A stretch of 62,916 nucleotides of DNA, the filler included, from Folioceros fuciformis (Eukaryota), in the NCBI GenBank assembly GCA_049999805.1. It is 11 parts of 11 records of this genome, joined end to end, with 100 filler letters (N's around TTAATTAATTAA, not from the genome) between each part and the next. Parts side by side here need not be neighbours in the genome. Positions count along the whole stretch, not along the records: positions 56,750 to 60,740 come from JBNGIO010006440.1; 10 more parts are not named here. One strand, given 5' to 3'. Below the pieces are notes generated by a model. It was not told the origin of the DNA. It ran no database searches and saw only the letters and a list, made by a program, of their open reading frames with translations. Of the stretch, positions 4,424 through 62,916 are shown piece after piece. Each line of letters opens with the position of its first letter. Position 1 is the stretch's first letter. The position numbers and the translations under genes were made by a program.

Positions 4424-4523
4424 NNNNNNNNNNNNNNNNNNNNNNNNNNNNNNNNNNNNNNNNNNNNTTAATTAATTAANNNNNNNNNNNNNNNNNNNNN
4501 NNNNNNNNNNNNNNNNNNNNNNN
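4424..4523. other. Artificial contig linker N44-TTAATTAATTAA-N44 (first of ten)
   Basis: Identical 100-nt six-frame-stop linkers also at 11560-11659, 17646-17745, 22207-22306, 26476-26575, 32518-32617, 35243-35342, 43376-43475, 56650-56749 and 60741-60840. Confidence 0.98.
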
Positions 4524-11559: not shown

Positions 11560-11659
11560 NNNNNNNNNNNNNNNNNNNNNNNNNNNNNNNNNNNNNNNNN
11601 NNNTTAATTAATTAANNNNNNNNNNNNNNNNNNNNNNNNNNNNNNNNNNNNNNNNNNNN

Positions 11660-16899: not shown

Positions 16900-17745
16900 G
16901 TCCTAAACCAAGCAGGGACAGACCACAAGAGCTCATGAAGAGAGGACCTCCAAGAGCTCACGAAGAGATAGACTGACTCCCAAAGTGAATGACTCCCTCC
17001 TCCTACAGGCTCACCTAATCTTATAGGAGCCTCTCTCTCTCTCTGACTTCACCTCTCTCTAACTTTAGAAAAATTATTTTAATAGGACCACTAGCCTAGC
17101 CGGCTATCACCAGCCACTTATTTAGACTTCTAGCACATCCTGCCACCAATGAGCTCCTGGCCCTACCACCACAAGGATCTACCACCTCTTAGACTATCCT
17201 GAGACTTCGGAGGATGTCTGATCTTCAAAGATATGCGGACGCCGCCTCTTCTTTGTTGGATGGCTGCCCGCTAAGTCTTCCCCTGCAACTGTTCACCCTT
17301 GGTGGCTGAGCCAGCCTCGAGGGGAGGAGTATGAGAAGTGGGAAAGATAGAGAGGAGGTGGGAGGCAATGGGATCAGCAACTGGAACCTGGCCTGAAAAC
17401 GGTAGCTTATTCAGCGGGATCAGCTTCCAGCCGAAATGGTTCCTCGGCCATGGAAGATTGACCCCGAGGTGCTGGAATAGGCCCCGAACTAGGAGGAAAA
17501 GAAAGCAGGTGAAACAGAGTTGAATTGGAATCTCTGGAATTAAATCCAGAAAAATAGGGGTAAAAATAGAAAAGGGGAAATTAGGAAAATAAAAAGAAGG
17601 AATGCGGGTACACGTATCATTACGTATTAAATACGTATCTCAACANNNNNNNNNNNNNNNNNNNNNNNNNNNNNNNNNNNNNNNNNNNNTTAATTAATTA
17701 ANNNNNNNNNNNNNNNNNNNNNNNNNNNNNNNNNNNNNNNNNNNN

Positions 17746-22206: not shown

Positions 22207-22306
22207 NNNNNNNNNNNNNNNNNNNNNNNNNNNNNNNNNNNNNNNNNNNNTTAATTAATTAANNNNNNNNNNNNNNNNNNNNNNNNNNNNNNNNNNNNNN
22301 NNNNNN

Positions 22307-26475: not shown

Positions 26476-26575
26476 NNNNNNNNNNNNNNNNNNNNNNNNN
26501 NNNNNNNNNNNNNNNNNNNTTAATTAATTAANNNNNNNNNNNNNNNNNNNNNNNNNNNNNNNNNNNNNNNNNNNN

Positions 26576-30664: not shown

Positions 30665-31905
30665 ACAATGCATGCAAATTATTGAAAGCGCTTTATGGAC
30701 TCAAACAAAGCGCTATGGAGTGGTACTCTAAGTTAGATGAAGCCTTAGAGGCCTTAGGGTTACCAAACTAGACTCCAATAGCAATATCTATATTAGAAAA
30801 TAAGATGGTTGTTTTATTCTACTTGCTGTATATGTAGACGATATTGTTCTAATGTCTAACTCCAAAGCCATGGTAAAAGAGACTAGGTCAATGCTTTCGA
30901 AGCATTTTGCTATGACCACTTGCAGGGATTTATCTTATTGTTTACGCATTCAAATAGTTAGACACAGAGAGTCTAGAAATATATTTATACATCAATCCAA
31001 ATATATTCAAGAAGTTTTAACTAAGTACAAGATGCAAGACTCTAATCCTATATCCACACTAATGGAAGTTAACCTTAAGCTGATTAAGGCAGATCGAGAC
31101 TCAACTCCATATCTTGACACGAATGGGGTACCCTACTCTTTAGCAACTGTTGAAAGCCTTATGTACTTAATGGTCTGCACTAGACCAGACCTTGTATTTC
31201 CAGTGGGAGCACTCTCTCAGTTTTTATCATCTCCCACACAAGAACATTGGAAGGCTATTAAGCGCATATTTAGATATCTTAGATCTACTTCGGATATGGG
31301 ACTCCTATACCAGTCCTCTACTAAGCAAGATGAGCACCTTCAGCTTCAAGGATATAGTGGTGCTGATTGGGTAGGGGACAAGGACGTTAGAAAGAGCATA
31401 AGCAGCTATGTGTATTTGGTCGAAGGCACAGCCACGAGTTGGAGCAGCAAGCGGTAACAGATGATTGCTCTAAGCTCCACGGAAGCAGAATATTGCTCCT
31501 TGACACATGCTTGCAAAGAAGGACTATGGCAACTCCTACAACTATCGGAATTAGCAGAAGCTCAACATCTTCCAAGATCCCTCTACTGTGACAACCAGGG
31601 AGCTATCTCGCTTACCTATGGTGCTAAGTACCATGCGCGTACCAAACACATAGAGGTACAATTTCATTTTATCCAGAAAGTAGTTTAGGACGGAAAATTT
31701 GGAGTCCTATATTGGCCGACAAAACTAATGACAGTTGATATCCTTACCAAAGCCCTCAGCTCGGCTAAATAAACACCAGCAGCACTGCGCATCAATGGGC
31801 TTAAGAAGACTATCTCAAGCTTTCTTTAGCAACAATTAATACTCATGTATTCTAAATATAAATCCTAAGTCTAATATTAAGTCACTAAGTGAGAGTGTTA
31901 CAATA
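30665..31905 (+). mobile_element. Copia RT/RNase H 3' fragment with PPT and start of 3' LTR
   Basis: LYGLKQSAMEW, YVDD, CTRPDL, GYSGADWVG, ALSSTEAEY, YCDNQGAI, HARTKHIEV; purine-rich AAGTGAGAG followed by TGTTAC at 31896. Confidence 0.9.
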
Positions 31906-34449
31906 ATAGTATCCGTAGCATTAGTTAGGGCACGGTTCACTTATACTAAGCGGTTGCGTTCGAAGGCACCGCTTTATCATAACACATAACCTATACAGAC
32001 CACGAAAGTAATCGATTCTCTTGCTTGCACGCTGATCGGTCAGGGATGCATTGAACGTTTTCATATAAATGCAGTGACTACTCCTGCGAGGAAATCGCGG
32101 GGCAACACCAACTTACGTCTCCTGCTACATACTAAAGACAGCCGCAAAACGTAGATTGAAGATCGATCTTGTGCCGTGTGTGACGTATGCCGGGAGGCGC
32201 AGAGCATATTGCTCTGCTGTCGGCTGCAGTTTTGCTACTGAATTGGGCGACGGCAAGGAGGAGGCGAGACACACTAAATTTCACGTCCAATGTATAAATG
32301 ATCTGCCAAACAAACAAACACGGACGAGGCCGAGGCCGAATGGGCACACAGCAGTCGCAGGTTCTAGACAGGGATACAAACAGTCTCAGACTGTCGGTGC
32401 GCGGGTGCGTGGAGGTGTGGCAGTCGGACTCCCATCCACCGGAGCAACGCCAGCGAGAGACAATTCACAAGTGTCACGGCATAGCAAGGAAAGGCAAGGC
32501 AAGGCAATGCGACGCAGNNNNNNNNNNNNNNNNNNNNNNNNNNNNNNNNNNNNNNNNNNNNTTAATTAATTAANNNNNNNNNNNNNNNNNNNNNNNNNNN
32601 NNNNNNNNNNNNNNNNNCTCCACCACCCTCCCTCAAGGCGCCCTCCAGCCCGGCCACTGCAGCCACAGCCTCGAGAGCGCCCCTCCCACGGCAGCCACAG
32701 CCACAGCAAGATCCCGGACTAAGGCGCCCCCACCTCGGCCTCGGCCAGCGACAGAAGATGCAAATTCGGCCCTGCCGGACCCCAATTTGCCCCAGCCCCT
32801 GCGTCCAACATAGTCGCAGCTCACGGAAGCCCTCCCTGGCATACATAACCCGGATTCAAGATGTCTCTACATATCTCCACCATGGCCAATTCTGGCATGC
32901 GCTATTCGCCATTCTGCCATCACAATTATGCGCGGCTCGCTGTTGCTACTCGCCCGCCTTTCATCGCCCTGCACGCCACCAGAATGCAATGTCACCTTTC
33001 ACAACGCCGCAGCATCGCATCCCTCGCATCCCCGCCAGCCCCACCCCAAAGTGACGCTACCAGCGACTGAGCTCGAAAGATCGCAATACTAATAGGGCTA
33101 CCAACCAGGGCACACATACAAAACCTCACTGCACTTATGCGACCCCGCCTCCTAAACGAATTCTACCTAATTAACATAATAACACCATCCATAGTACCCT
33201 TTTTTCGTTTACCATAGAATATCTTATATAGACAACATGTTTTAACTTTATTTAAAGGAAGAGATGGAAAGACCCAATCTGCCTATCCCGAATCAAAGAA
33301 GAGCAAAGGGCCAAGAACCGGAGGCTCTTATGCAAATTACAACATAGCCTATTACACTAAGAGTGTCATAGTTGGAGACGATCAAGGGCCTACTCCAAGC
33401 CAATTCTCACCATACAAATCACACTAGGCAACACTCTACATGGGATGATGGAAACCCACTATCTCGAACCAAGACAATCATAGAGGAAAGAGGGAGACAC
33501 ACCCTATTTGAGCCATGGTATAGGCATTAGCAATCTTAATAAACCTTTAGCACACTTCTTAATAAGCCTTGAAAAATCCTTTCCATGAGTCTCTAAGCCT
33601 TAATGGCAAGGCCAATAGAGGTATATTCCTTCTACAAAGATGAGTACTTATGCACCTTGCTAGTCATGCATCCCTCAACCACCCGTTCTCGAGAGTTGAT
33701 GGAGACATGCCTATGGACCAATCGCCAAGTAGGATCCTAATAGCCTATACATAGGGTTGTCGAGCAACATGTGTTCATGCAAGGTAGTCGGAAAGCAAAA
33801 TCAAGAAACATGTTCTACAACATGTGCTCCTAGAGGGTAGTAAGGAAGCAAAATCAAATGTAAGGTATTAGACATAAACACTGCTCAACAACATTAACAA
33901 GAGGGTAACAAGTCTGTAAAGTTGCACTTTCCTTCTAATAACAGACACGTAACCCTATTAAGCAGCATGTATAAGAGAGCTGTAGCTGGAAGCTAGCAAG
34001 AAAGGTAAATTGGATATGAGGCAATAGGCACACAACACTAATCAATTGTAATAAGAGAGTAGGCAACATCAAACTTGCTTACCAACAGCAACAAGAAGAC
34101 AACATGAAAGCAAAATTGGATGCAAGGTTGCAAACGGATAATGGTGCCCAACATCATGGCCAAAGGAAAGCAAAATTAGATCTAAAGCGACAAGCACGCA
34201 ACGTTACCTATCACCATGGCAACAAGGAAGCAAAAATAGACTTGCCTACCAGTAGCAAGATAAAGAAAAATATATACTTTATTATAAAAAAAGGTGGAAA
34301 AACTTATCTATCTTAAAAGAGGAAAACAAAACCACAAAAGCAACGTAGCTCAAGAGACTATTCCTCAACACCACCTTACATTAAGCTACCAACCAAGCTA
34401 GAAGTTGAAAGGGTCTACTTAGTATCATGATTACTATCACTAATGCTAT

Positions 34450-35242: not shown

Positions 35243-37865
35243 NNNNNNNNNNNNNNNNNNNNNNNNNNNNNNNNNNNNNNNNNNNNTTAATTAATTAANN
35301 NNNNNNNNNNNNNNNNNNNNNNNNNNNNNNNNNNNNNNNNNNTGTATTTTGTGCGATATGCCTGCATGGTCGTGTTTACAAAATTTACAGTTCAAGACTT
35401 CCATACAGACTCGGGAAAACATTCCCAATTTCTCAGACCTGATTTCTATGTTGATCATAGAGGAGAAAAACCTAGGCGAGGAATCATCCTCTAAGCCTAA
35501 GGAAAACTCTGAGCAGGCCTTCTACTCTGGCAGAGGCAGAGGTAGAGCCCAAGGTGGCAGAGGGCAAAGAGGTGGCAGAGGTCGGAATCCCTACCAAAAT
35601 CAACAACAGAATCAGGAGTCCCAGTACAAGAGTACACGTGGAAGAGGAGAAAATTCTCGAGGCTGGGGGAGTCAAAGAGGACGTGGAAATCAACAACAAA
35701 ATGATGCAAATGCAGACAATAGTGGTTGCTGGACTTGTGGTAGGTTAGACCACTTCGAAAGAGACTGTCCAAGGAGAAATCAAGGCAACAGGAGGCAGCA
35801 GAACAATTATGCCTCTAGCAGCAGTCAGAATGACTCAGAAAACTTGTTTGTCATGCAGCATATGCTTAACTCTGTGTCTGCTAATGGATCCAACAATGGT
35901 GAGATTGTGTGGTATGTGGACTCAGGAGCTTCGAACCACATGACATGCCATGGGGAGTGGTTCAAAGAAATGCAAGTGCTTGACAAACCTGGATATGTAG
36001 AAACTGGAGATGACACAACACATGCAATTGTGCATACAGGAACTGTACCTCTGAAGATGCAGGATGGCAAAGTGAAGTGCCTGGTAGATGTTCTTCACGT
36101 ACCCAACATCACAAAGAACTTGGTGTCAGTTGGGCAGATGGTTGAGCAAGGACTGCAGGTTAGATTTACACCTGCAGGACTCTTTGTTGAAGAGTGCAAG
36201 AAAGGCGGTCGCCTGATTGCTCAAGGACAGAAGGTTGGACGGATGTTCACCTTGAACGTGGAGGTTCCTAAGCTGAAGTCAGCCATGTTTGCGAAGGGTA
36301 CAAGGGTAGTGACAGACCTAGAGATGTGGCACAAACGCATTGGACATGTAAATGTGCAGAAGTTGAAGTCCATGCAGCATCAGAAGGTTGTCACAGGCAT
36401 ACCCAAGCTTACAGAAAATGGACTGCAAGGTATATGTGAAGCATGTCAACTTGGGAAACAGCCTAGGAATGCGTTCCCCCATGACAAACATGTCAGCAGA
36501 TGTGTGTTGGATGTTGTGCATTCAGATGTATGGGGTCCTACACAGACTGCATCAATCGGAGGCTGCAAGTACTATGTGACCTTCATTGACGACCACACAA
36601 GGAAGGTGTGGGTCTATTTCATGAAAGAAAAAAGTGAAGTGATCACTCATTTTCATACTTTCAAGGCGATGGTTGAGAAGCAGACAGGTAGGCACATCAA
36701 ATGCCTAAGATCTGATGGAGGGGGAGAGTACTTCTCCAGAGAGTTCAGCAAATTCTTATCAGAACAGGGCATTCAACGGCAATACTCATGTCGTTATACG
36801 CCACAACAAAATGGAGTTGCAGAGCGCAAGAACAGGCACATAGAAGAAGTGGCGAGAGCCTTGATGACAGAGAAGAAGATGCCTCACTACTATTGGGCTG
36901 AAGCTGTAAGCACAGCAGTGTACATCATGAACAGAACTTCCACAGCAGCGGTGCACAGTGTAACACCGGAGGAGAAGTTCACAGGGAAGAAACCTGACTT
37001 GTCACACTTAAAGGTATTTGGTTGCATTGCTTATGTCCATATTCCGGATGAGTTGCGGACTAAGCTTGATCCAAAAGCAGAAAAGTGTGTCTTCATTGGG
37101 TATTATGTTACACAGAAAGGATACAGGTGCTACAATCCCAGTACACGGACTATGAGAGTAAGCAGAGACGTAGTCTTTGATGAAATGGGTAGCTGGTACT
37201 TTGAAGTACAAGGAAGTAGTGTAGCTGATGTGCTTGAAACTGAGGTAACAAGCAATGCAGGTCAACAATCACAAGTGTTGAGTGGACCGCAAGCGTCATC
37301 AAACTCGACAAATGTTCAGAATCCATGGAGTGGCAGGTTGCGAGGTAGTGTGAGTCCTACGAGCTCCACAGCTGTGTCTCGCAAAGGGAAGGAAAAAGTC
37401 CAGGATTCAAAGATACCAGACCTAAGTGCAGGTGCGGATGATTCAAGCGACTCTGAGCAGAGCTTGGATGAGGAATTCGGTGTACCGAAAATCGAAACAC
37501 CTAGTGCAAAAGAGGTTCAATCAGCCCCTGGAAATGGTTCAATCCCACGGAGATCTGGAAGGCAGAAGGTTCCAATACAGCGGTTGACCTATGATAGCTA
37601 TGTAGCTAGGCACCATGCCTATATGGCAAAGGTTGTACAGGATGTGGAACCAAGAAGCTTTGAAGAAGCTATTGGAGACACAAAGTGGGAACATGCTATG
37701 GATGAAGAAATGAATGCGTTAAATCAGAATGCAACATGGGACCTAGTACAACTACCTGAAGGCAAGAAACCAATAGGTTGCAAATGGGTGTACAAGGTCA
37801 AACACAACGCAGATGGTAGTATCAACAGGTACAAGGCAAGGCTTGTGGCCAAGGGATATGCCCAG

Positions 37866-40800
37866 TATGGAGTGATTTCTTGCACCCAAGAATCACCCAA
37901 GGGGCCACACATTCCCCTATTGTCGTTGAAGTCCTATGGTTCGCTCCCAAGGGAGTGAACTAGTGCCAAGGAACGCTAGCTACCGCACTTCTACCTATCA
38001 GCCGGTCTATAGGTCTGTCCATACACTCCAAACAAAAGGACTAGAAGCCTAGCCTACCTCCTAAGTCAGCTCACCCAACTCACACTCTTGTACTTCAGTC
38101 CTCCAGCCCTTCTTGATTCCCACTTCAGCCACTTTCTCCTTGACCTCAGCGCTTCAAGATTCCCACTTTAGTCCCTTCCTCTTCACTTCAGTCCTCCAAG
38201 ATCCCCACTTCAACTCTTCCTCTCTTTTCTTCAGCTCCCCCCCCTGGAAATTAGACACAATGGCTTCACTTCTTGCAGTCTTCAAGCATAGTGGGGATCT
38301 AGGACGGGATAGCCCCCTTCACTTCAGCCAACCTGCGAATCATGTAGCCCTTGCGGATCCGGCCACACGGATCTTGACAGCCCCGGGATCCCCACGCTCC
38401 CCTAGTGGCAAGGGAATCAGGACTTTGGGTCGACCTCAACCGACTCAGCGCCCTAAGCCAGGAGTTCTACCCACAAAACCCGGGGACCTCACACCATAGA
38501 CCGCCCACTCTCAATGGCAGGCCTCTCCTCTTATACCCCTAACCCTCATCTCTCTCTCTGACTTAAACCATCCTACATCCGGTTCTGACCTAAACCTAAC
38601 CTAGGTCTGACCTAACCCTAACCTAGGTCTACATCCGGTTCTGACCTAAACCTAACCTAGGTCTGACCTAACCCTAACCTAGGTCTGACATAAACCTTAC
38701 CTAGGTCTGACCTAAACCTGACCTAGGTATGACCTCAACCTGACCTAGGTCTGACCTCAACCTGACCTAGGTCTGACCTCAACCTAATCTAGGCCTGACC
38801 TAGACCTAATCCCAACCAAGAACCCTAACTTTAACCTACCCCTGCTTCTAATTGCCCCTTGACACCGTTAGCTGCCCTTTCATCAAAATCCCCAAAATCA
38901 TCAACCCCTCACAATTACCACACATCAGGGGTGCTTCTCTTTCCCCCTTCTTCCCTCCCGGGTTAGATCATCTCCCCTCTTCTGATTACCCTGCCTCCTT
39001 CCCCAGAGTCTCCCACCTTCAGGTCCTTCCCTCCTGGCTACGGCTGGCCAAGATTCCTGGCCCTAGGCTAGGCCTTCGGCCTACAAGCAACCAGGGTTGC
39101 TACTCATGGATGGAAAGCCGAGTGTCAATTATGTCCTTGGCGGACCACCCTCCAAGCTGCTGGACTGATGCCCTTGAGCGGATAGCCCAGGGCGTCGCGT
39201 CCTGGCATGGCACACACCATCCATCATCGCCGCAAGTAGCATCCGGCCCTCCGCCTGCGGTAGCGAGTCAGTTCCAACCATCTAACCGCGGATGGCAAGC
39301 CGTATGCAAATTACGGCCCCTGGCTGGCATGGTGCCTTCGATGCCTGGGTGGGGCAGCCTACGCCCTAAAATTCCCTGGCAGTAGTCTACAACCAGTGTT
39401 CCAGTGTCAGGCTGTCATCCTTGGAGTGTCCCTCGGGACACTCCCTTGTCTTTCCCCTAGGCAGCCGCCTATGGGCTATTAGGCCTACCGGCTATCCAAC
39501 CAGCCATTTGGCCAGTCTTCGGCTGCTAGATCCGGTCGAGACCATTCTGTCCAACTTGAAGGAACGACCATGCAGAATCGTCGATGGGGTTAGTTGATCT
39601 GCACTGCACCTGGTTTGACCGGGATTTGGGACAAGCCACTATCCTTGGTTTGCAGTGCACTAAGTGCAAGTCCGTCCGCACCTGGTGCTCTCGGATCCAA
39701 CCGCTTATCCTCAGCCATCGTCTGGATTCAGCCATCACGCCGTGACTCCCCTAGCCCTGCTTCCAGCCAAACTGCAACTATCCCAGCTGCTCAGTCTCCG
39801 GCTGATCGGGACTGGATCCAGTCAGCTCGCCTGGTTGCCGAGTCGCCTGCCGTTTTCCTGATTCAGCTAGCTGGCCAGCCGACCAGACTTGACTGGCCAG
39901 CCTGCCTTTGCCTAGATCTGGCCAGGCGACCAGCCTGTAGGCCGCCTACTCCTCGCTTGCACTTGGAACGGGCTGGGTTGCTGACCAGACTCCTCACCGC
40001 CAACTCCTCACCGCCATCTCCAACCAGCAACCCCCTTGTTCGGCTAGCCGTCACGGCTCATCTCGGTTGCTCACGGCCGAGCATTCGCCTAGCTAAGACA
40101 GCTAGCCAGGAAGATAGCCCAACCCCCCTTAGATCCACTTTGTCCCGCTTGCCCAGCCAGCTAGCCAGAGACCCCTAGCTGCTAGGTCGTCGCCGGCTGG
40201 ATACTCCTGCAGCTTGTCTTGGCTGCTCCAGCCTCCAGACGTCCCTGGCCCAGCAGTCCTCCGACGGGGGATGCTTGCCAAGCCTCAAGGGTCTCCCCTA
40301 CAATCCCGATTTCGGGCTCGCCTCCTTGTTGCCGGTCGTCGGCCGGGCCGTCTGCTGAGACCTGGCTAGGCGACCATTCCCCCCCGCGTCCGGTCTGCTC
40401 GGCTCGCCTACCTTCATCCTAATCTACTCCTGTGGTTCGGCCTGGCTTCTAAATCATCTGACCCCAGCCGGCCACCATTCCGGCCCCTCCTGGCTGTTTC
40501 TGGGCCGGGCGTTCGACTACCTAAGGCAGCCAACCAGGCCACTATGCTCAGCCGAGACCAGCCACGCCGCCTAGCATTTTGCCGTGAACCTACCCTGACC
40601 AGTTCCTACCAGCCAGATGGCATGCTTGCTCCTCTAGCTGCCGGGCCGCCCCAGCCAGCGGATCCGCACCCCGATCGGCCCCTGACTGCCTGGCTGCCGC
40701 TCAGCAGCTGGTCACTGCTAAGCCAGCCCCCCTGCTACTCGCCTTGCCGATCCAACTCGGCGCCCGCCCGCTCGGAGCGTCGGTCACTTGGAGGCCACCG

Positions 40801-42662
40801 CTCCCCTCTATCCGCCTGGCCGACTGAATCCGACTACTTGCCATGATCCCACCCAACCAGGCGCTGCATGGGATCCTGCTGCTGAAACGCTTTCCAGCCT
40901 TCGGTTCCAGCCCTGGTCCTAATCAGCTTAGATCCACCCCGCCTGCTGCTTGGCCGCAATCCGATTGCACGCTATCCACGGCCGCTGCTGTCCGTGGCCT
41001 GGTCAGCCTGCTGGCTGGCTAGATCCAGCTCGCAAGCCAGCCGGATTTAGTAGGCCCCCTACCAACCGGCTCGCGTGCCTGGACTCGCCCGCTGGCCAGC
41101 CCGGCCTGGAACTGGCCAGGCAGCCTGCCTGCTTCCCATAAGCCGACCCGGCTGGGCTGCTACCTAAGCTCTTCAGTAGCTCGCCACCCGCCAAGATCCC
41201 TCCTGGCCCGAACTCCCCCTCAGCCAGGATCTACCTGGCCCACTGGCCACACCTTGATCTGCCTCAAACTCACCTGCAAGCCATTACCGCTTTGATCAAC
41301 CCAAGGCCCGTCTGGCCTGGATCCAGCGCCACCTCGGGCTGCAGCCACCAGCGGCCGCATGGCGAGCCCGCCGACCGGCCAGGCTCAGCCAGTCGGCCTG
41401 AATCCACCTTGGCCAGCCGCATACACTCCTCCCCCTGGGCTAGGCACTGCTAGCTACCCTTCTAGCTAGCAGCCACCTCCAGCCACGACCAGTTGGTTTC
41501 CACCCCCGGCCTGGCTGACTTGGGTCCATCCCGGCTGCCCACCTCCTGCAGGCGGGTCACCGCCCGGCTTCCAACTTCGGCCTCGGCCTGCCATGCTCGG
41601 AGTGTCCTGCCGATCAGGATCTGGCCAAGCCTAGCTCAACCCGCCAAGCCTACCGATCAATCTTGCCCGCCATCCGATCGCACGCTATCCACGGCCGCTG
41701 CTGTCCGTGGCCTGGTCAGCCTGCTGGCTGGCTAGATCCAGCTCGCAAGCCAGCCGGATTTAGTAGGCCCCCTACCAACCGGCTCGCGTGCCTGGACTCG
41801 CCCACTGGCCAGCCCGGCCTGGAACTGGCCAGGCAGCCTGCCTGCTAGCTGGTTGGCGATCCGGCCAGCACCTGTCTGGCCCCATCGCAACCAGTCGCCA
41901 TGACCAGACCCTTGCCCAGCCGATCAACTAGTTGCTTGGTTGGATTTGCCCTGGCTAGACCCCATACCACCCTGTCCCTGCTGCTGCTACGAGGCCGCCT
42001 TGCTACAGCGGCTGGTGGCCTGCAACCAGGCCAAGCTGCTTGCTAGCGCCGCGGCTTGCCGTGGCCAACTGGCCAGTGCCACTTGCCGACCCCCGGCCTC
42101 CATATCCAGCCCGGGAGCCAGCCACCAGCCTTGGCCTCCCAGATTCCCTGCCGTCCAACCGGGCCGTCCAGGTTGTCTGGCTGGATCCCCTGCAGCCGAT
42201 CCGCCAGCCAACCCTCCTACTAGCCTACTGCCAGCCGCTTGCCCAGAGGTCGCAAGCTGGCTCCTGCCTTCTAAATCCGGCCAGATCCAAGCCACCGCCC
42301 TGGATGCCGCCGGTCTGCTAATCTGGCCACCTGTGCTCTGGTGATCCCTCTCCACCCGATGCACCAAAGCAGCGTCCCGACACGTCCATCTCCGTCCCCA
42401 GCTTCCACTAGCAATAGCCAGAGGACACCCTAGCTCACTTTCCACGACGTCCCCGGTTTCCTATTCCTCCGTTACCTTACCCCGAGGAACCAGAGCCCGT
42501 GTCCTATCTACCACACAACCTACCTACCTTATCGACTCACCATCAACCTAACTATTATTCTAACCTAACCTTCCAACCTTTCCTCTACAACACTCACCCA
42601 CAAATCCAAAAAAAAGAAAACCTATCATTTCCCAGGGGTCTGTTCAGCATGTGGAGTCCACA
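37866..42662. mobile_element. 4797-bp non-coding insertion with LTR-type ends and 5-bp TSD (giant solo LTR or non-autonomous element)
   Basis: CCCAG duplicated at 37861-37865 and 42663-42667. Ends are T(A/G)TGGAG...TCCACA. Removing it restores GYAQ-TYGIDFEETF in frame. Confidence 0.92.
38575..38830 (+). repeat. Telomere-like ~22-bp tandem array (CTGACCTAACCCTAACCTAGGT)
   Basis: About ten degenerate units; related arrays at ~14065-14130 (minus strand) and ~46375-46520. Confidence 0.9.
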
Positions 42663-43519
42663 CCCAGACATATGGAATAGATTTTGAGGAGACGTTCAGT
42701 CCAGTTGCCAAAATGGCAACAATTCGAACCGTGATCGCACTAGCGGCATCGAAAGGTTGGGTCCTACATCATATGGATGTGAAGAATGCGTTTTTACATG
42801 GAGAATTGCTGGAAGAAGTATACATGGACCAGCCACCAGGATATGAGGATTTGGATCATCCAAATCATGTGTGCAAGCTGAAAAAAACGTTGTACGGACT
42901 GAAGCAAGCCCCGAGGGCTTGGCATGAGTGTCTTGCTCAGCATCTGATTCACATCGGATTCAACATGGCAGATGCGGATCATTCGTTGTATGTGTGCAAA
43001 AGTACAAAACGACTGGTCTTTGTGACCATTTATGTGGATGATCTAATCATTGGAGGTAATCAGTTGGATCAAGTGGAGCAGATCAAGGAACTTCTACAAC
43101 AAGAGTTCAAGATGGCGGACCTAGGTGAACTGAGGTTCTTTTTGGGCATTGAAATTATACGAACCAACACAGACGAGTAGATAGCCGATATATTTACTAA
43201 GCCAATGGGAGCAGAGAAGCTGAAGAAATTCCGAGCTATGTTAGGCGTACAGATGCTATGTTGAGCTCGAGGGGGAGTGTTGAGTTATCGAGCTCTATAT
43301 GAGCTAAACCCATGTGGTGTTAGTTATGCCAGTTGGGTTCATACTAGACTAGTTCTAGTTATTAGTGAACTTAGGNNNNNNNNNNNNNNNNNNNNNNNNN
43401 NNNNNNNNNNNNNNNNNNNTTAATTAATTAANNNNNNNNNNNNNNNNNNNNNNNNNNNNNNNNNNNNNNNNNNNNTGCCTAGGCATTTTGCATGGATAAT
43501 GCTGAGATACAGAGCACAA

Positions 43520-47978: not shown

Positions 47979-50900
47979 TGTTGAAATAGCACCACAGGCA
48001 CAGAAGGACTCCACAGTTCCTTACTTATGGTGTACAGGATGCTACATATATAGCCTTCAGGCGGGGCAACCCTCGATAAGGTAAGCCTTAGTCTCGAGGG
48101 TGCAATATCCTAGTATATCCTGATATATCCTGATAACACTTAGGTGATAGATAACTACGAGTTCAATATGGGATAATCTACACTATCCTAAGTGTTGTAT
48201 GCTCTTAATAACAATTCAGTTAGAGCTTGATTTCTAACACTCCCCCTCAAGCTCAGACTATTTGTAACACTCCAAGTAGTTCACGAAAGTGTAAGAACTT
48301 ATCTCTACCTAGCGACTTAGTAAAGATATCTGCTACCTGGTCTTCGGTCTTCACGTGACGAAGATCTATCTTCTCAGATAATACCGCTTCCCTGATGAAA
48401 TGATAATGTACTTCTATGTGCTTCGAACGAGCATGAAACACAGGATTAGTAGCCAACCTCATGCTACTCATGTTGTTACAGTAGATTGTAACCTTGCTGT
48501 TCACTATATTTCCAAGATCATGTAGCAAATTCTGCAACCAAGCTGCTTCATAGGCTGCCATTGCAGCTCCTTGATACTCTGCTTCTGTGCTTGACAAAGC
48601 AACTGTCGGTTGTTTCTTGCTTTGCTAGCTGATCATACTACTTCCCAGACTGAATGCATATCCACTGGTTGATCTTCTGTCATACGCACAACCAGCCCAA
48701 TCAGCATATGTATATCCTATCAGTTCAAGATGCTTCCTATGCTCATAGAGCAATCTAAACTTAGTAGTTCCTTTCACATATCTCATAATTCTTCTAACTG
48801 CATCCAAGTGCGGTTTCCTTGGCTTCTGCATAAATTGACTAATCAGTCCCACTGCATAACTTAAGTCAGGACGTGTGATAGTCAAGTAGATCAAACTTCC
48901 GACCATCTGTCGATACATAGTCACATTTTCCAGCTCAGCTCCTACATCCATTTGCAGCTTGACGTTCTGCTCCAATGGTGTATCCATCGCTTTGCAATCT
49001 CCTATGCCATACTTCTGCAACATATCCTTAGCATATTGTTTTTGGAATAGCCAGATTCCATGAGGTGTAGACACAACCTCAATTCCTAAGAAGTATCTGA
49101 GTTCACCAAGATCCTTCACCTTGAACTCTTTTTGCAGATTCGCCTTGACATCTACAATACCATCTGCAATACCATCTGCATCATCTCCTGTGATGATCAA
49201 GTCGTCAACATAAACGACAAGACACACTTGTCCTACCTTGGTCTGTTTTACAAACAGACTATGATCTGCGTCTCCAATCACAAATCCTCGCTCCTTCAAA
49301 TAGCTTGTGATACGAGCATTCTATGCTCTAGGTGCCTGTTTGAGCCCATACAATGCCTTCTTCAGTTTGCAGACGTATGTTGGAAACTTAGGATGAACAT
49401 AGCCTTCAGGCTGTTCCACGTACACTTCCTCCTATAACTCACCATTCAAGAAGGCATTCTTGACATCCATTTGCCATAACTTCCATCCTTTAGCTGCTGC
49501 TAATGCTATGACTGTCCTTACAATTGTCATCTTGGCTACTGGACTAAAGGTTTCCTCATAATCAAGACCATACTGTTGTGCATATCCCTTTGCAACCAAC
49601 CTGGCCTTGTAACGCTCCAACGTTCCATCTAACTTGAACTTCAACTTGTACACCCACTTAGAACCAATAGGAACCTTGCTATCAGGCAGTTGAACCAAAT
49701 CCCACGTTCCATTCTCAACTAATGCTGAGTATTCTTCATCCATGGCTTAACACCACTTATCATCTGTCACTGCCTCAGCAAACTTGGTTGGCTCCTTACA
49801 AGCTGTGACCCTTATCATATACGCATAATGTTGCGCATTGTAGCTTGTATAGGTGTACCTGTCAATGGGTTTCCTAACCCTCTTAGATCTCCTTGGTCTT
49901 GGTTCATTTTGAACCTGCCTTGCATATTGTTGCTCCTTAGCACCTAGCGTTTCCACAGACGGAATGCCAAACTCACTGTCAATGCTCTCACTACTTGAGG
50001 ATTCATATCCCTCATTTCCAGTTTTGCTGCTTTCTACTCTCCTCCTCACTGACATATCCGGGTCAGTGGTCTTCGGTTTACCATTCCGCAATCTTCCAGA
50101 CCATGGATTCACCGTTGGTGATCCACCATTGGTCACATCCTCACTCTTTGCTGGAGTACTCTTAACAGTACTCTCCCCTGTGGGTTCGTCATAGGGTAGT
50201 GCAGCTGAGTTGCTATACCAGGAGGCTAACTCATCAAATACCACATCCCTACTTATCAGGATCTCATGTGTGGATGGCACATAACACTTATATGCCTTCC
50301 TATCTAGTGCATACCCCAGAAAAACACTCTTCACTGCTGCTTTAGGATCCAGTTTCCTACGCTTCTCATCAGGTACATGCACATATGCAATGCACCCAAA
50401 CACTTTCAAGTACCTAATATCCGGCTTATAGCCATACAGTCTCTCAATTGGTGTAGCATCATGAATTCCTGCCGTAGGAGTTCGATCTAGTACATACACT
50501 ACTGTCATCACTGCTTCTGCCCAATAATCATTAGGTAAGCACTTCTCATTCAGCATTGCCCTTGCTGTTTCCATGACTACCCTGTTCTTCCTCTCTGCAA
50601 CACCATTCTGCTGTGGTGTGTATCTGCAAGTCATTTGTCTTCGTATACCATGATCTGCAAGATACCTGTCAAACTCATTTGAGACATATTCTCCCCCTCC
50701 ATCTGATCTTAGACAAGAGATGGAGCAGCTAAATTCATTTTCAGCATGCTTTTTGAAGTCCTTGAAAGACTTGAACACTTCATCCTTATGCTTCAGTATG
50801 TACAGCCACGTGTACCTGCTGAAATCATCAATGAAGGAGACATAGTAGTGGGCTCCTCCAAACGATGCATTCTGTGAAGGACCCCATATATCAGAGTGTA

Positions 50901-56398: not shown

Positions 56399-56749
56399 TC
56401 TTAAGGTCTTGATATCTATGTCTGCAAGAATCTTATCTATGTCTGCAAGAATCTTAGTCTAGTACTGTATATGCATGGTCGAAGGAAAAATGAGGACACA
56501 AAATCCATTAGTTACAGCTAGTGGCTCCTGGACCTTATGTCACCATTCTTCCTCCCACCCTGCGGTACAACATCAATACTGGGCTACGATTCACAACTTG
56601 TATGACAATAATTAAAGCGAAAAATTCCGCTGTGCAAATCTGCTTGCAANNNNNNNNNNNNNNNNNNNNNNNNNNNNNNNNNNNNNNNNNNNNTTAATTA
56701 ATTAANNNNNNNNNNNNNNNNNNNNNNNNNNNNNNNNNNNNNNNNNNNN

Positions 56750-58564
56750 CAGTCTCACTGTCAAATACTATCGGGGCACTACTAGAAGAGGAGGCTTCAA
56801 TGAACTTAGGCAGGCCACAAGCACAAACCTCGCATGGCCGCATACTCTATGTTGGGAGAGGAGTAAGAGGCGGCAAAGGAGGTAGATTCCCAAATTGGAC
56901 AAGTTGGCAAAGCAGGTCAACAGCTGTGGGAACACGTCTTCCCTCTAATCCTAATCACAAGAAGTTAACATGTAACTGGTGCAGATACATGGGCCATATT
57001 GAGGCAAACTGTCGTAAGAAACGTGCAGGCGAGCCACGAAAGACAGGCTCACCAAAAGCAAATGTGATCACTAAGTCAAAGACATCAAGTTCGAACATTA
57101 TCTTGACAGTATTTCTTGCACACACCAAGTCCGATGAACATTCCTGGTTCATAGACTCGGGGGCATCTGCCCATACATGGTATAACAAAAGTAGCTTTAA
57201 TGATTATCAGGAGTATTCACCTGGACAATTTGTCCTGCTGGGCGATGAGAGTGGGCTGAATATTGCTGGAGTTGGAACCGTGAAGATTCAACTGAATGAT
57301 GGTTCCACCAGATGTTTGAAGCAGGTCCTGCATGTACCTCAGATGGTTAAGAATCTATTATCTGTTAGACATGTCTGTCAGGAGTGGAATGTGATAGTAA
57401 GTTTTGATCAAACATGTGCAACCTTATTGACGTCAAGACAGAAATGGTAGTTGCCTTGGGAGCTCTTGACTCTGATCTATACAGGCTTGACTGCCACGCC
57501 CATTTTGGAAATGACTTGGACAAATTGCATGCTCGAGCACACTTAGCAAAACGTTTGGATGAAGATAGTACTCAGCTACTATGGCACTGTCGGTTGGGGC
57601 ACCCAAATTATAACAAAATGAAAGACATGGTTGGAAAGGAGCTGTACCAAGATGACGTGCCCTGGACAATTCAAGATGTAGATGTGCTCTGTGAGGCTTG
57701 TCTGCATGCAAAACTCCCTAAACAGAATGTTAAGAAGCCACATGAACAAAATACAGCATCAAAAACTCTAGCTGTTGTACGTACTGATCTTTGCGGGCCC
57801 ATGTCTGTTAAATCTCTGGGAGGAGCCTTATATTTCATGGTGCTGGTGGACGATTACAGTTGTTTCACAATTACATACTTTCTGCATCACAAGTCAAAGG
57901 CCTTGGAGAGATTTGTTGACTATGTTAACTATTTGCAAAGACAAACTGGAAATAAGGTCAAGGTTTTGCGAAGCGATGGAGGTGGAGAGTGTACTGGCCG
58001 TGGGTTTCAAGAGTACTGTAGGTTGTCTGGAATTGGCAGACAGATCACGGTTCCATATACCTCTAGTCAGAATCTGCTTGCAAAGTCTAAAAATTGGTAC
58101 CTGCAAGAAGCAGCTAAGACCATGCTATATCAATCTGGCTTGTCTAGGAGATATTGGGCTGAGGCAGTACACAAGTACACACTGCCACTTATCTTCTAAA
58201 TCGACTTCCTACTGCAACCTTCAAGAATTCCATGCCTTTCTAGCACTGGATTGGCAGAAAGCCGACGATTTCACATCTTAGAATCTTTGGATGCAAAGCA
58301 TTCAACAAACCTTGGATTCAATAGCAGCTCAGCCACGAAGATCGTCACGTAGGCACACCACATCACCTCTTCAGTGGAATGAGGTACCTTATGCCATGGA
58401 GGGACACCAGCTGCATTCAGCCCTGTTAGTCCAAGCCTTTATGGCAACATCTGACTTAGGGGAGCCGCAGTCATACCAAGAAGCAATCATGTCAGTGGAC
58501 AGAGAAAAATGGCTAGAAGCCATAAATTCATAATTCAACTCGTTGATTGAAAATGAGGCATGGG
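56750..58564 (+). mobile_element. Ty1/copia element G fragment (end of Gag, PR, INT, deletion, start of RT)
   Basis: CNWCRYMGHIEANC, WFIDSGAS, WHCRLGH...CEAC, SDGGGE, EPQSYQEA...KWLEAI. Confidence 0.93.
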
Positions 58565-60740
58565 TGTCGGAGGATTTTCATAAACTAAAGCATTTAGTGC
58601 AGGTTAATTAGATAATAAACTATTAAATAATTACATCTTGTCAAGAAACTTCAAGTACAATTACTATATATGTTCAGGTAAGTCCAACTTAGACTAATAT
58701 AAAAAGGTATGTCTATTCGCCAAAAGACGTAACCCTAATGAAACGGTAAGCTGACTTAACATAATTAATTATATTTCTTAATAAATTATATTTCTTAATA
58801 TGCTGATAACACTCTTCACCTAACCACCCTTAGGTTTCATCACTCCCACTTGTTGACGCATGTTAAGAACGGACAGTCCTTTGAATCTCTTCTAGTGACA
58901 GTCTTTTCAGCTCCCCTCTTGAAGGCGGCGCACATGCCACACTCGACTACGCCCCATAGCATTACACTCCACTCTGGCCCTTAATAAGCTATGGAACTTG
59001 ATGGCATGGAGCCGTTTCCAATGAGGTGCGCCCCTCTCATAGGCATCGCATATGCCGTTTTTCTCATAGCAAGCCTGAAGCTTGAATCCAAGTTGCTGGA
59101 GCTCACCATGTCGGCTTCCACAGATGAGGATTTTCCCAGGCTGCGGCTCCGATCCTATGTCCGGGATGAGTGCGGGTGATTCAGCAAGAAGGCTCAGACA
59201 CCTGTCAGGGATACAAGAAGTTTGATTGTGCAGGCGGCTGCGGCGTGCGGTGCTGGATCAGTGAGGCACCCGAGAGGTCGGCCTCTAAGCAGAGGGAGAA
59301 ACCCGGCGCGGGGAAGGGGCAGAGCACTTGCGCTGTTTGCCCCGGCTGCCCCGACCATGCCTGGCCCTTCTCGCCCTATTGTGCCAAGTCAGAAAATCAC
59401 CTGCGCCCAGTAAAACAAAAGCAAGATTGCGAGTACCAAGACCATGAGGCTCAGCCCAGGAAACCCTCGACATTTCCTGGCACTAAAAATTATCTAGAGG
59501 AGACCAAGGTTGTCACACTTGGCAACATCACTAATCCTGGATCACCTGTGTGGTACAGATGCAAGAAAAGTGGTTTTGTGATGAAGAGGGTGTGTGTTCG
59601 GCTGTGTGAGGTGTATCCAGGCCACGTTGTCAGCCACTACCGTAAGTTCTGCTCATTTTGTGTATGTGTCTACCACGTTGTGTAGCAGAGTTTTGCCTAA
59701 GCTCCCACTGATTGTTGGAATTTGCTAATCATCCTTGTTGTTGTTGCAAAGTCTGAAATAAGGTTGCGTGAAGAAGAGAGGTTGAGAACAGAGGCATATA
59801 TAAGGGAGGAGGACCAGCTGTCTTATGAAGAAAGGAAGAAGAGGAACAGCTCTTGCTCCTCCGAAGATGCCTTCTACTCACAGACTCCCGAATCCAGACT
59901 GCTGGGTTCTGACAGCGAGGGAGCGTCCTCCCAGGGGTCAGAATTTCAGCATGAAGATTCTGAAAGTAGTGAAATGAACTCTCCAAAGTCACCCAATGAA
60001 ATAGAGTACCCGAACAGCAACCATTCATATTCCAACTGTAGCTGGGACTAGGCTTAGCTTGAATTTTTGCTTTAATGTGACTGTAGGAAGTCTTGAGACT
60101 TTCCCATGCCAAGACTTTTAACATGTCTTGTGTGCAGATCCCTTCCAAGGGCTTTAGTAAGTATATCAGCTGGATTATCAGCTGTGGGTATATATTGCAG
60201 TGTGATTTTTCCTGCTTGCACCAGTTCTCTTATAAAGTGGTCTTCCACTTCAACATGTTTTGTTCTTGAGTGAAATACATGGTTCTTAGCTAGTGCAATT
60301 GAGCCTTGGTTGTCTGTATGAATGACTATACAACTTGGTAAGCTTATTCCCATTTCCTTGAATAGCAGCTTAAGCCATACCACTTCTTTAGCAGCAGATG
60401 TTAGGACTCGATATTCTGCCTCTGTGCCGGACAGGGCCACTGTTGGCTGCTTCTTACTGCTCCAACAAATAGGGCCTCCAGCAAAACATATCACATACCC
60501 TGAGACTGACTTCCTTGTGTCTATGTCTCCTGCATAGTCAGAGTCAGTGTAGACCTCTAGGTCTAGGGCTTCCTTGTGATGCTGATACTTAAGTCCTAAG
60601 TCTGTTGTCCCCTTTAAGTATCTAAAAACTCTTTTCAGACTTTGCCAATGTTCTAAGCCAGGGTTTTCTAAATACTGAGATAGCACACTTGTAGCATAGG
60701 CAACTTCAAGCCTAGTAGTATTTGAGGCATAGATTAATTT
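58565..60740 (-). mobile_element. 3' end of Ty1/copia element H: RT/RNase H, ~1.25-kb 3' region, PPT, 3' LTR (58565-58811); abuts the RT start of G
   Basis: YTDSDYAGD, WSSKKQ, TEAEY, DNQGSI, ADILTK (60072-60686). On the minus strand GGTGGTTAGGTGAAGAG precedes TGTTATC, and the LTR ends CCGACA. Confidence 0.9.
59108..60051 (+). pseudogene. Putative two-exon antisense gene in the 3' region of element H: Cys/His-rich domain, charged helix, acidic Ser-rich tail; two inferred lesions
   Basis: CACCATG at 59108; ORFs 59170-59685 and 59722-60051; donor C|GTAAGT at 59642, GCTAAT branch motif and T-rich tract before 59750. Confidence 0.5.
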
Positions 60741-60840
60741 NNNNNNNNNNNNNNNNNNNNNNNNNNNNNNNNNNNNNNNNNNNNTTAATTAATTAANNNN
60801 NNNNNNNNNNNNNNNNNNNNNNNNNNNNNNNNNNNNNNNN

Positions 60841-62742
60841 CCGCGAGGGGTCAAATGTCCAAGGATCAGGGTACACTTCTGGGTCGACATGGAAGTAGCG
60901 GTACCAGGCAATGACCGACCAGTTTTTGGGGATGAATACACCTGCAGTAGATATGTGGAACAGCCAAAGTCGTCAGATATGTGGAACCCAACTAGGGCAG
61001 ATTTGCATGCGCAGGGAGCTGGTCAGGCATCGTTACCATCCACTACGGCGTCTTCTCTGGCCTTTCTGGGGCTGAAATTTGCCACGTTTGCTAGCCTGAG
61101 AGTCTCTTGCAGAAACTGGAGCCACATAATGTTTACACGCCAGGTGCACCCCTGGTGTTAGCTGAAACGCAGGACAACATATTCCATGCTGCATGTACTT
61201 TTGCTCTCTTGACAGTGTCGGCCCATAACTAAGCTCAAGTCAGGAACCAGATAGGAAATGAACAGCAGCTAGCGTACCCGAGAGGAGTGAGGAAGAGAAG
61301 CACTGATTTCCTCCCATGTTATCGGCTCATCTGGAGATCGCTTCCTCGCAAGTTCTTCATGTTCATCCTGTAATTGCGGGGCGTCAACTCAGTCATGGCG
61401 ATGACATATGAAGACAGAAGAAAACACGTACGAGCATGATGTGAGCAGGGTGATTCATAACCTTGACTTTCTGTGCATGCGCAGGGTATAGACACATGTT
61501 GTGCAGAACCCACAGGATTGCACATGCGGTCGTATCATGGGCTGCAAACAAAACCGCGAAAATGTTCTCCCTGATCTGTTTGTCAGTCAGCAATGATCCA
61601 CTTTTGAGCATTTCATCCAGCAGATCATGATGGTCGACCACACCGGATGCAGCACGTCTCTTATTCAAGACGCGTTGCAGAAATCCCATGGCTTTCACAG
61701 ATCCCTGAACAAGGGCAATCCAATCACAAGGATGTCAGTGCTCCAGCTTTGATACTCATGATGTTTTTCACGGTGTACGTGCAAGATGCACAAGAAGTGA
61801 AAAGTGCCAAGCAGCAGGCACCTGGACAGCCTTGGCCCAAGCACTTCCGGGAATCCTGACCGGAATCACCATGAGGGCACGTTCCAGCAGAGCTGCGTTC
61901 GCTCGGAATTCATCCAACTCCTGACTGGGTTCCAAGTCCTCGCACATGAACCGGATGGCCACGTTGAAGGTGAACTGCATAGATATCAATCCCAGCTCTT
62001 AGACACATGCTCATGAATCCCCGCAAGGCGCAACGCCGGCCCTGCACCACTTACTTCTTTCAGCGCTTTGGCAGTTTCGATCTCCTTTCGTCCTGACAAG
62101 CCAGCAACCCACATCCTGGCAGCTTCATCGACATGAGCCGCGAAGTACTTTAGCCCATTCGTGGTGAGCCGCGATCGGATAAACTTGCGGTACAAGGTGT
62201 GCATATTCCCGTCTACCTGGCTGATGGCATCCGAGCCCATGACCTCGTGCTGAGACGCCGGGTAATTGGGTCCGAACAGTTCGGGATGCTGCAGCACGAA
62301 CCTGGTTGCCTCCACCGTGGTGACGCACACCGCAGGACGCCCAAACAGATGTGTTCGGAAATTCTTCCCGTACCTGCACACCACATCCCAACACCGGCAA
62401 CAGCTCGTGTCACAAACAGCAATGCCGGCCTACAACAGAACTGAGTATCTATCCACCCCACGTCTAGGACCAGAATGGACGAAGGAGAACGCACTTGCGG
62501 ATCCGAGGGAACATGAAACTGTCGGGATGACCACTCAGGAATTCCACGGTTTCGCCAAAGATGGGTATCTGCCAGAACCTGCCGGCAGGAAGCTGCGCCC
62601 GGCCTTCGTCGTGCGCTCTCTTCGCCCGAAGGGAGCGGGAGTAGAAAAAGACTCCCGCAAACAGTAGCATCGGTAGACCCAGGAGCAGTGTGACCCCCGT
62701 CCCGATCCCCAGGCACAGCGTCGCAACGAAACCGCAAACCAT
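60841..62742 (-). CDS. Cytochrome P450, CYP85 clan (CYP707-like I-helix), 3' end off contig. Exons 62742-62495, 62373-62055, 61974-61822, 61704-61462, 61367-61278, 61115-61037, 60941-60841
   Basis: N-terminal anchor, PIFGET, YGKNFRTHLFGRP, ENIFAVLFAAHDTTA, ETLR, FDPSR. All six introns are GT-AG and phase-compatible. The 90- and 79-nt exons are typical of CYP85-clan genes. Start codon is inferred; the heme-Cys exon is not in the window. Confidence 0.93.
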
Positions 62743-62916
62743 GGTCGAAGCTGCACAGGTCAGCTGAACAGGACAGAGGACTGGGCTGCTTGAAAGCTGG
62801 AATGCAGTGCACTGGCGCTTCTCCAGCACCGCGATTGCTGAAGCACAACTCAAACCATGGTGTGTGCGGAATGGGAATCAACCCGACACATCATGTTTCT
62901 TCCCGCTCGGCTAACG

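Follow-up and report, generated by a model that had tools for sequence, protein, structure and literature searches.

Open reading frames (ORFs) situated between pol and the 3' long terminal repeat (LTR) and directed against gag-pol (aORF-3R) are described for plant Ty3/gypsy elements of the Tat/Retand type, such as maize Grande with gene23, rice RIRE2, Silene Retand with its TRP28 ORFs and bean pvRetro13 with ORF2 (main texts of PMC7264820, PMC4093653 and PMC11963269). According to the same main texts, the products are orphans or similar to TRP28 or SMC proteins, some of them are nuclear, and Grande gene23 possesses a promoter of its own. These antisense extra ORFs are recognised, yet unexplained. 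In a stretch of 62,916 bases from Folioceros fuciformis (assembly GCA_049999805.1), in the following called the window, a comparable layout was found in a Ty1/copia element on the minus strand. Positions 58812-60071 form an extra segment between the pol stop codon and a polypurine tract (PPT) with the putative 3' LTR, an anatomy that is unusual for copia. The better coding signal of the segment, of moderate strength, is on the strand opposite to pol. Our tentative interpretation is that the segment represents the remnant of an acquired, orphan antisense gene, riding as a passenger in a low-copy Ty1/copia family.

The segment matches the aORF-3R in layout and fails on open frame, protein likeness and type of the host element. 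Shared are the place from pol to the 3' LTR, the direction opposite to gag-pol, an orphan or poorly understood product and, at least for parts of the segment, the presence across copies of the family (main texts of PMC7264820, PMC4093653 and PMC11963269). In contrast, the host element is Ty1/copia instead of Ty3/gypsy, and the segment measures 1.26 kb compared with 2.9-6.6 kb in Retand (main texts). The frame is not uninterrupted in this copy. It is broken at 59170-59176 and, further on, by either two stop codons or an intron without an in-phase AG at the proposed acceptor. Likeness to the known aORF-3R proteins, i.e. a TRP28 (PF04195) or an SMC-like domain, was not found by Pfam or protein searches. 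Furthermore, the segment contains an intron-like stretch, and the word intron is absent from the main texts of PMC7264820 and PMC11963269.

In a survey of bean, 63 of 65 copia families were without an extra ORF, two carried sense env-like ORFs, and all 15 antisense cases belonged to gypsy elements (main text of PMC4093653). SIRE-type copia elements (SIRE1, ToRTL1, pvRetro3/4) are known to carry an extra ORF in the interval from pol to the 3' LTR. These env-like ORFs are located on the pol strand and are mutually alike (main text of PMC4093653), whereas the frames described here are on the opposite strand and had no relatives in the searches reported below. No antisense extra ORF of a Ty1/copia element, and none with an intron, is described in the main texts, without supplements, of PMC7264820, PMC4093653 and PMC11963269. 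A full-text literature search for copia combined with antisense ORF or antisense open reading frame returned only unrelated papers (reviews on human transposable elements), and such ORFs were not mentioned in the survey of plant LTR elements PMC6317226 under the terms tried.

An extra segment between pol and the putative 3' LTR

The window is made up of 11 pieces, and at each of the ten joins there is a separator (44 N, TTAATTAATTAA, 44 N). Hence, features are not to be read across the joins, and the true context of the 1,260-bp segment is limited to one piece of 3,991 bp (56750-60740). Two copia fragments face each other on this piece. Of the minus-strand copia only the RNase H end is present, as the element runs off the piece at 60740.

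The RNase H end showed 44-46% identity (tblastn) to two other copia pol ends in the window. It matched 2257 database proteins at E <= 1e-20, many of them with PF07727. The best match (P0003) had 71% identity and the same C-terminus; after this protein the next pol matches drop to 51-52% identity. On metagenome contigs, 37 copia RNase H loci were matched with 33-48% identity. The protein collections are nearly empty for this copia family. Thus, the absence of relatives of the ORFs says little about sibling elements.

At the other end of the segment a PPT followed by an LTR starting with TG was identified (AAGGGTGGTTAGGTGAAGAG followed by TGTTATCAGC, minus strand 58831-58802). The junction GAG/TGTTA was also detected downstream of pol in the two other copia elements. 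In the whole window it is matched five times, versus 1.9 matches expected, and 2 of 100 shuffles reached five. The distance from the pol stop to GAG/TGTTA is 1,260 nt in the element described here versus 123 and 13 nt in the two others. With this comparison the extra segment between pol stop and PPT/LTR, reported in the first-pass annotation of the window, was confirmed. Both elements with the tight layout have in-frame stops inside RNase H, at 31455 and 48627. No second LTR was detected on the piece (no direct repeat of at least 60 nt); the 5' part of the element lies off the piece. An outer LTR end at TGTCA 58639 was considered and dropped, as the start of a contig at 58641 does not coincide with it.

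A moderate coding signal on the opposite strand

On the plus strand, almost all of the segment is taken up by ORFs of 63, 171 and 116 codons, and their open stretches span 58988-60051 (Table 1). The ATG at 59108-59110 gives MSASTDEDFPRLRLRSYVRDE. Among the first 157 residues of the 171-codon ORF 13 are Cys. The 171- and 116-codon ORFs are in the same frame and are parted only by TAG 59683-59685 and TAA 59698-59700. The features named in the first-pass annotation were all recovered from the sequence and the ORF listing.

The open frames were compared with 2000 dinucleotide-preserving shuffles of 58812-60071. An ORF of at least 171 codons occurred in 5.25% of them, and ORFs of 171 plus 116 codons (or longer) in one frame in 4 of the 2000 (0.2%). 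A codon model was derived from the 5,076 codons of 16 long ORFs of the window. With this model the three open stretches scored +0.10, +0.03 and +0.10 in the proposed frames. Other positive scores were obtained in one minus frame only (+0.008 and +0.06 over two open stretches), and scores were negative in all six frames for the intron-like stretch and for 58812-58990. At codon position 1 the plus strand ORFs contain 0.29-0.32 G and 0.55-0.57 purines, as in known genes; for the minus ORFs a purine content of 0.41-0.52 was determined at this position. Shuffles, codon scores and position-1 composition moderately support the earlier claim in so far as the better coding signal is on the strand opposite to pol.

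Base composition at codon position 3 was determined as well. The GC content at this position (GC3) is 0.53-0.62 in the plus strand ORFs, versus 0.49-0.64 in two cytochrome P450 exons of the window and 0.35-0.43 in six copia ORFs. For the 171-codon stretch up to GTAAGT (59170-59641) a GC3 of 0.62 and 0.32 G at codon position 1 were found. The GC content of the whole segment is 0.515 versus 0.39-0.41 in the flanks.

Several results weigh against a former gene. The mean longest ORF of the shuffles already reaches 118 codons, in line with a stop-poor composition, and one minus frame is as stop-poor as the plus frame (11 versus 12 stops in 419 codons). With a stop-free codon model the open stretches scored 0.016-0.018, which is below the value of true ORF chunks (0.060 +/- 0.054, n = 26) and above that of spurious overlapping ORFs (-0.085 +/- 0.095, n = 18). 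In Pfam, no family was matched at E <= 1. No scoring candidate was obtained for the 171-aa or the 116-aa ORF from a collection of 5.8 billion protein clusters. The best match in the PDB was an antibody chain with E = 1.8. In the ESM Atlas no usable match was found for either ORF, with recognition values of 1201 and 1232; as a yardstick, 91 of 100 proteins of known families reach 2300. AlphaFold2 without alignment (single sequence) gave a mean predicted local distance difference test (pLDDT) of 38.4 and a predicted template modelling score (pTM) of 0.19, too poor to judge the fold. Of 98 pattern matches to the 171-aa ORF on metagenome contigs none was confirmed.

An exhaustive HMMER search of 1.84 billion representatives gave only two matches, and both were rejected. 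They are tandem-repeat proteins, the score being summed over 19 and 5 repeats, and contain a short stretch resembling KSGF..C..C. At the 37 metagenome copia RNase H loci nothing like the segment was detected (best tblastn E = 1.1, no blastn match). The designation Zn-finger-like of the first-pass annotation found no support in Pfam, the PDB or the AlphaFold2 model; it goes back to the count of Cys and His.

These results could also be explained by a non-coding spacer, i.e. a long untranslated 3' region, whose frames are a by-product of its GC-rich, stop-poor composition and whose splice motifs arose by chance. A spacer would account for the ORF lengths in shuffles, for the equally stop-poor minus frame, for the intermediate scores of the stop-free model and for the lack of a homolog, family or confident fold. 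It would also be in agreement with the frequency of GTAAGT and with the diverged sibling described below, which retains at least 80% identity over only 105 nt of the segment. However, two long ORFs in one frame are found in just 0.2% of the shuffles, and the bias for purines and G at codon position 1 fits genes on the plus strand only. In addition, the codon score falls exactly where the sequence is delimited by GTAAGT on one side and the T-rich tract on the other, and the ORFs fill the segment up to 20 nt from the pol stop. A spacer is judged unlikely, while deserving the most attention among the alternatives to a gene remnant.

The intron-like stretch has to be regarded with caution. The first-pass annotation proposed that one restored G at the frame break and one base change at the acceptor yield a single protein in correct phase. 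Its phase arithmetic proved correct: the overlap of the frames is confined to 59170-59176, and this copy has no AG at 59748-59749, where the acceptor would be in phase. An AG does follow the T-rich tract (59750-59751), but used with the donor at 59642 it would be out of phase and lead to an immediate stop. An in-phase AG is already present at 59700-59701, and a 60-nt intron (59642-59701) would remove both stops. As the two long ORFs share one frame, an intron is unnecessary to link them, and read-through with two nonsense codons is an alternative. In the window GTAAGT occurs 18 times on both strands versus 25 times expected, three of them on the plus strand within 58678-60162. That one of these motifs precedes the end of the long ORF by 41 nt is suggestive, but the motif is too common to carry the case. 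No RNA run was among the sequencing runs listed for the segment; for 58626-60099 the possible RNA run X4 contained no contig, and this gives no evidence either way. A signal for RNA structure was not detected in the 105 nt conserved in a sibling and in the intron-like stretch (z-scores 0.20, 0.96 and -1.01).

Sibling copies and the fate of the frame

Sibling copies were examined with public contigs of three DNA runs (X1, X2 and X3) from one sample of the same organism. Of the sampled words, 0.69 and 0.68 were found in two of the runs and 0.06 in the remaining one. The contigs were aligned to the piece 56750-60740 at a likeness of at least 80%. Statements on single positions refer to 40 of 735 differences and 12 of 14 indels. 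Within the window itself, no second copy of 58534-60071 was detected by blastn or tblastx.

Near-identical contigs cover the segment. One of them (1,136 nt, X1) spans 59393-60528 with 18 differences and no gaps; it starts in the Cys-rich ORF, crosses both stops and reaches into RNase H. A diverged contig (1,669 letters) was aligned at 60083-60486 with 72 differences in 404 positions and at 59459-59563 with 18 differences in 105. Between these two blocks it has 516 letters, compared with 519 in the copy described here. Its identity is 82% in RNase H and about 83% in the island of 105 nt; in the segment outside this island it is below 80%. In the gap between the convergent stops a diverged sibling contig contains 3 extra letters, at 60061 and 60066. 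A third contig with approximately 86% identity (99 differences in about 707 letters) extends from RNase H to 60016. Contigs of all three classes, near-identical, about 86% and about 82%, thus carry at least parts of the segment beside RNase H, although the contigs are short. As copies of 82-86% identity share the layout, the segment appears to be a family feature, which would be older than their split. The possibility of a one-off insertion or capture, named in the first-pass annotation as the finding to set against its gene, was not supported by this shared layout.

It was further proposed that the frame was lost only in this copy. This is not backed by the siblings: no indel at 59160-59180 was found among the 12 of 14 indels listed, though contigs cover the place. 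All four listed differences inside the ORFs that are not of bisulfite type (59480, 59485, 59797 and 59798) affect the first or second base of a codon, with Gly replaced by Asp, Lys by Glu and Tyr by Arg (among the 40 of 735 differences listed). The 17-nt tandem duplication of the LTR remnant is missing from the contigs of X1 and X2 covering 58762-58800 (one contig per run); hence it is private to this copy or individual. Beside the proposed acceptor the contigs of run X2 are interrupted, one ending at 59748 and the following one starting at 59751, and a contig of X1 runs through this site. The break may mark a site where copies differ. A number of about four near-identical copies, derived from depth multiples of about 10, was not relied on, as depth is no copy number.

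Taken as the remnant of an acquired antisense gene, the segment might have had the following history. An ancestor of the copia family would have taken up a foreign module between pol and the PPT in antisense direction. On the strand opposite to pol, the module would have carried one orphan gene-like frame with roughly 300 codons, and it would have been present before the family copies diverged to approximately 82-86% identity. An origin from host DNA is suggested because GC3 resembles that of the host P450 exons and not that of the copia genes. Any intron would be antisense to the genomic RNA and, as expected from the replication of LTR elements, would remain unremoved and be copied at each retrotransposition. 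The frame would then have been broken to its present state, with one break at 59170-59176 and two stops in the intron-like stretch of 110 nt. Near-identical copies show no visibly different state at the break, and copies sharing the break seem to have multiplied; thus, the protein is probably dispensable for the copying of the element, and the segment would now be a decaying passenger. Altogether, we infer foreign origin, former coding function and passenger status for the segment. Foreign, host-like sequence in the internal region is also known from gene transduction by maize Bs1 (summarised in PMC7264820), comparable with the host-like GC3 found here. The transduced pieces of this type are present in one or few copies (abstract of PMC7264820), whereas the segment is shared by diverged siblings.

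A working accessory gene would require intact siblings and a spliced mRNA transcribed from an antisense promoter within or close to the 3' LTR; its product would be a Cys-rich nuclear or nucleic acid binding protein of approximately 280-320 aa, modulating silencing or the life cycle of the element, and the present copy would have been broken recently. The anatomy as in the antisense extra ORFs of Ty3/gypsy Tat/Retand is in favour of such a gene (main texts of PMC7264820 and PMC11963269). The same applies to TATAAAAA on the plus strand of the LTR remnant, to the consensus donor with branch-like motif and pyrimidine tract, and to the conserved layout of diverged siblings, in which the length differs by 3 nt over 519. 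The contig break of X2 at 59748/59751 is a weak further indication. On the other hand, no indel at the frame break is among the sibling rows listed, and four of four listed differences in the ORFs change amino acids. Relatives, a profile or a fold were not found in the searches above, and for P0003, encoded on a contig of 2,509 nt, no relative of the 171-aa ORF was detectable in the same protein collection. Moreover, there are many ATGs upstream of 59108. Compared with a spacer, a working gene is thus the less probable explanation, and it appears quite improbable for this family.

The closest model for a working antisense gene at this place would be human T-lymphotropic virus 1 (HTLV-1). The antisense mRNA of this virus is spliced. 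Its antisense gene is located at the 3' end with the promoter in the 3' LTR (main text of PMC7264820), and for the segment a spliced message is possible. In contrast to the element with the segment, HTLV-1 is an animal retrovirus with proven protein and transcripts, and no sequence likeness exists. The most far-reaching version would be a copia family that has domesticated an intron-bearing antisense gene, with intact siblings expressing a spliced mRNA for a Cys-rich regulatory protein from the side of the 3' LTR. This would be a plant-type counterpart of the deltaretrovirus antisense genes and the first in copia; we consider it slightly less credible still than a working gene as such. A role as chromatin or anti-silencing factor, as suggested in the first-pass annotation, is pure conjecture.

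Finally, it is very improbable that the segment lies outside the element, as DNA of the host or of another source enclosed by two truncated copia fragments, or as a product of an assembly join. In favour of this, the piece is only 3,991 bp long with copia fragments facing each other, no LTR pair or target-site duplication is available on it for checking, the LTR remnant does not exceed 206 nt, and both GC and GC3 resemble those of the host. Against it, the PPT-like run with TGTTA, the signature of two other copia elements, is situated exactly at the far end, and independent contigs of two identity classes link the segment or parts of it to RNase H with the same spacing.

If the remnant of an acquired gene is confirmed, a copia family with such a module would point to the pol-to-LTR spacer as a site where acquired genes can generally settle. 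An antisense intron, if true, would be a natural marker of which strand is copied. The present copy is a broken orphan frame; its value is that of a pointer to the full set of copies in the organism and not that of a finding in itself.

Further features of the piece and the window

The features of the segment, of the piece and of the window are summarised in Table 1.

Table 1 Location of the features discussed in the text (positions in the window)
Feature	Position	Strand	Remarks
C-terminal RNase H part of Ty1/copia pol, last 222 residues	60072-60740	-	stop codon 60072-60074
PPT-like run AAGGGTGGTTAGGTGAAGAG	58812-58831	-	directly before LTR start
Putative 3' LTR remnant, begins TGTTATCAGC at 58811	58606-58811	-	AT-rich, at most 206 nt
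TATAAAAA	58698-58705	+	in LTR remnant
17-nt tandem duplication in LTR remnant	58762-58800		TRF score 71
Upstream 63-codon open stretch	58988-59179	+	ATGs 58991 and 59108; other frame than the long ORFs
Frame break	59170-59176	+	sole bases where 63-codon and 171-codon frames are both open
Cys/His-rich 171-codon ORF	59170-59685	+	157 codons (59170-59641) precede GTAAGT
Intron-like stretch, 110 nt	59642-59751	+	GTAAGT 59642-59647, two in-frame stops, CTAAT, T-rich tract
116-codon ORF	59701-60051	+	charged helix-like SEIRLREEERLRTEAYIREE, then acidic Ser-rich tail; stop 60049-60051
Second long open stretch beyond intron-like part	59752-60051	+	GC3 0.53; positive codon score
Gap between convergent stops, 20 nt	60052-60071		plus strand ORF stop 60049-60051, pol stop 60072-60074
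Two other copia pol ends with tight layout	31757-31900 and 48235-48272		spacers 123 and 13 nt
Second copia: gag knuckle, protease, integrase, first reverse transcriptase residues	56750-58605	+	opposite orientation; ends at start of LTR remnant
Cytochrome P450 exon-like pieces	60841-62916	-	PF00067, E = 1e-10 and 1e-3
Separators	4424-4523, 11560-11659, 17646-17745, 22207-22306, 26476-26575, 32518-32617, 35243-35342, 43376-43475, 56650-56749, 60741-60840

In the plus strand copia of the same piece, Pfam detected a protease barrel (PF22936), a pre-integrase domain (PF13976) and an integrase core (PF00665). A contig of 388 letters from run X4, guessed to be RNA, matches this neighbouring element with 0 differences at 57329-57220 and 56949-56829 and skips the 270 nt in between. 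On the minus strand the skipped part begins with GTGAAT and ends with TTAG. The match leaves the window sequence at 56829, directly before another minus-strand GT (GTTTGT). The joint over 270 nt was present in none of the three DNA runs. The contig looks like a spliced transcript, antisense through gag and protease of the plus strand copia. It is situated downstream of the putative 3' LTR of the minus-strand element and has the same direction; read-out from the LTR and a host transcript are both conceivable. Thus, spliced transcription is indicated on the piece, but on the other strand from the plus strand ORFs and in the neighbouring copia.

In run X3 the changes C>T (196) and G>A (143) were strongly overrepresented, as in a library of bisulfite type. 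At 59193-59202 the listed converted C's are at CHH sites, and two CHG C's are not among the differences listed. This pattern is only a hint of methylation as in transposable elements.

The P450 exons are on another piece and are not neighbours of the copia elements. A PERF-like region of the P450 was read by eye at 60793-60972. Rfam gave no match in the whole window. Positions 38001-43000 are characterised by a GC content of 52-66%, a strongly negative GC skew and several plus strand ORFs of 144-203 codons.

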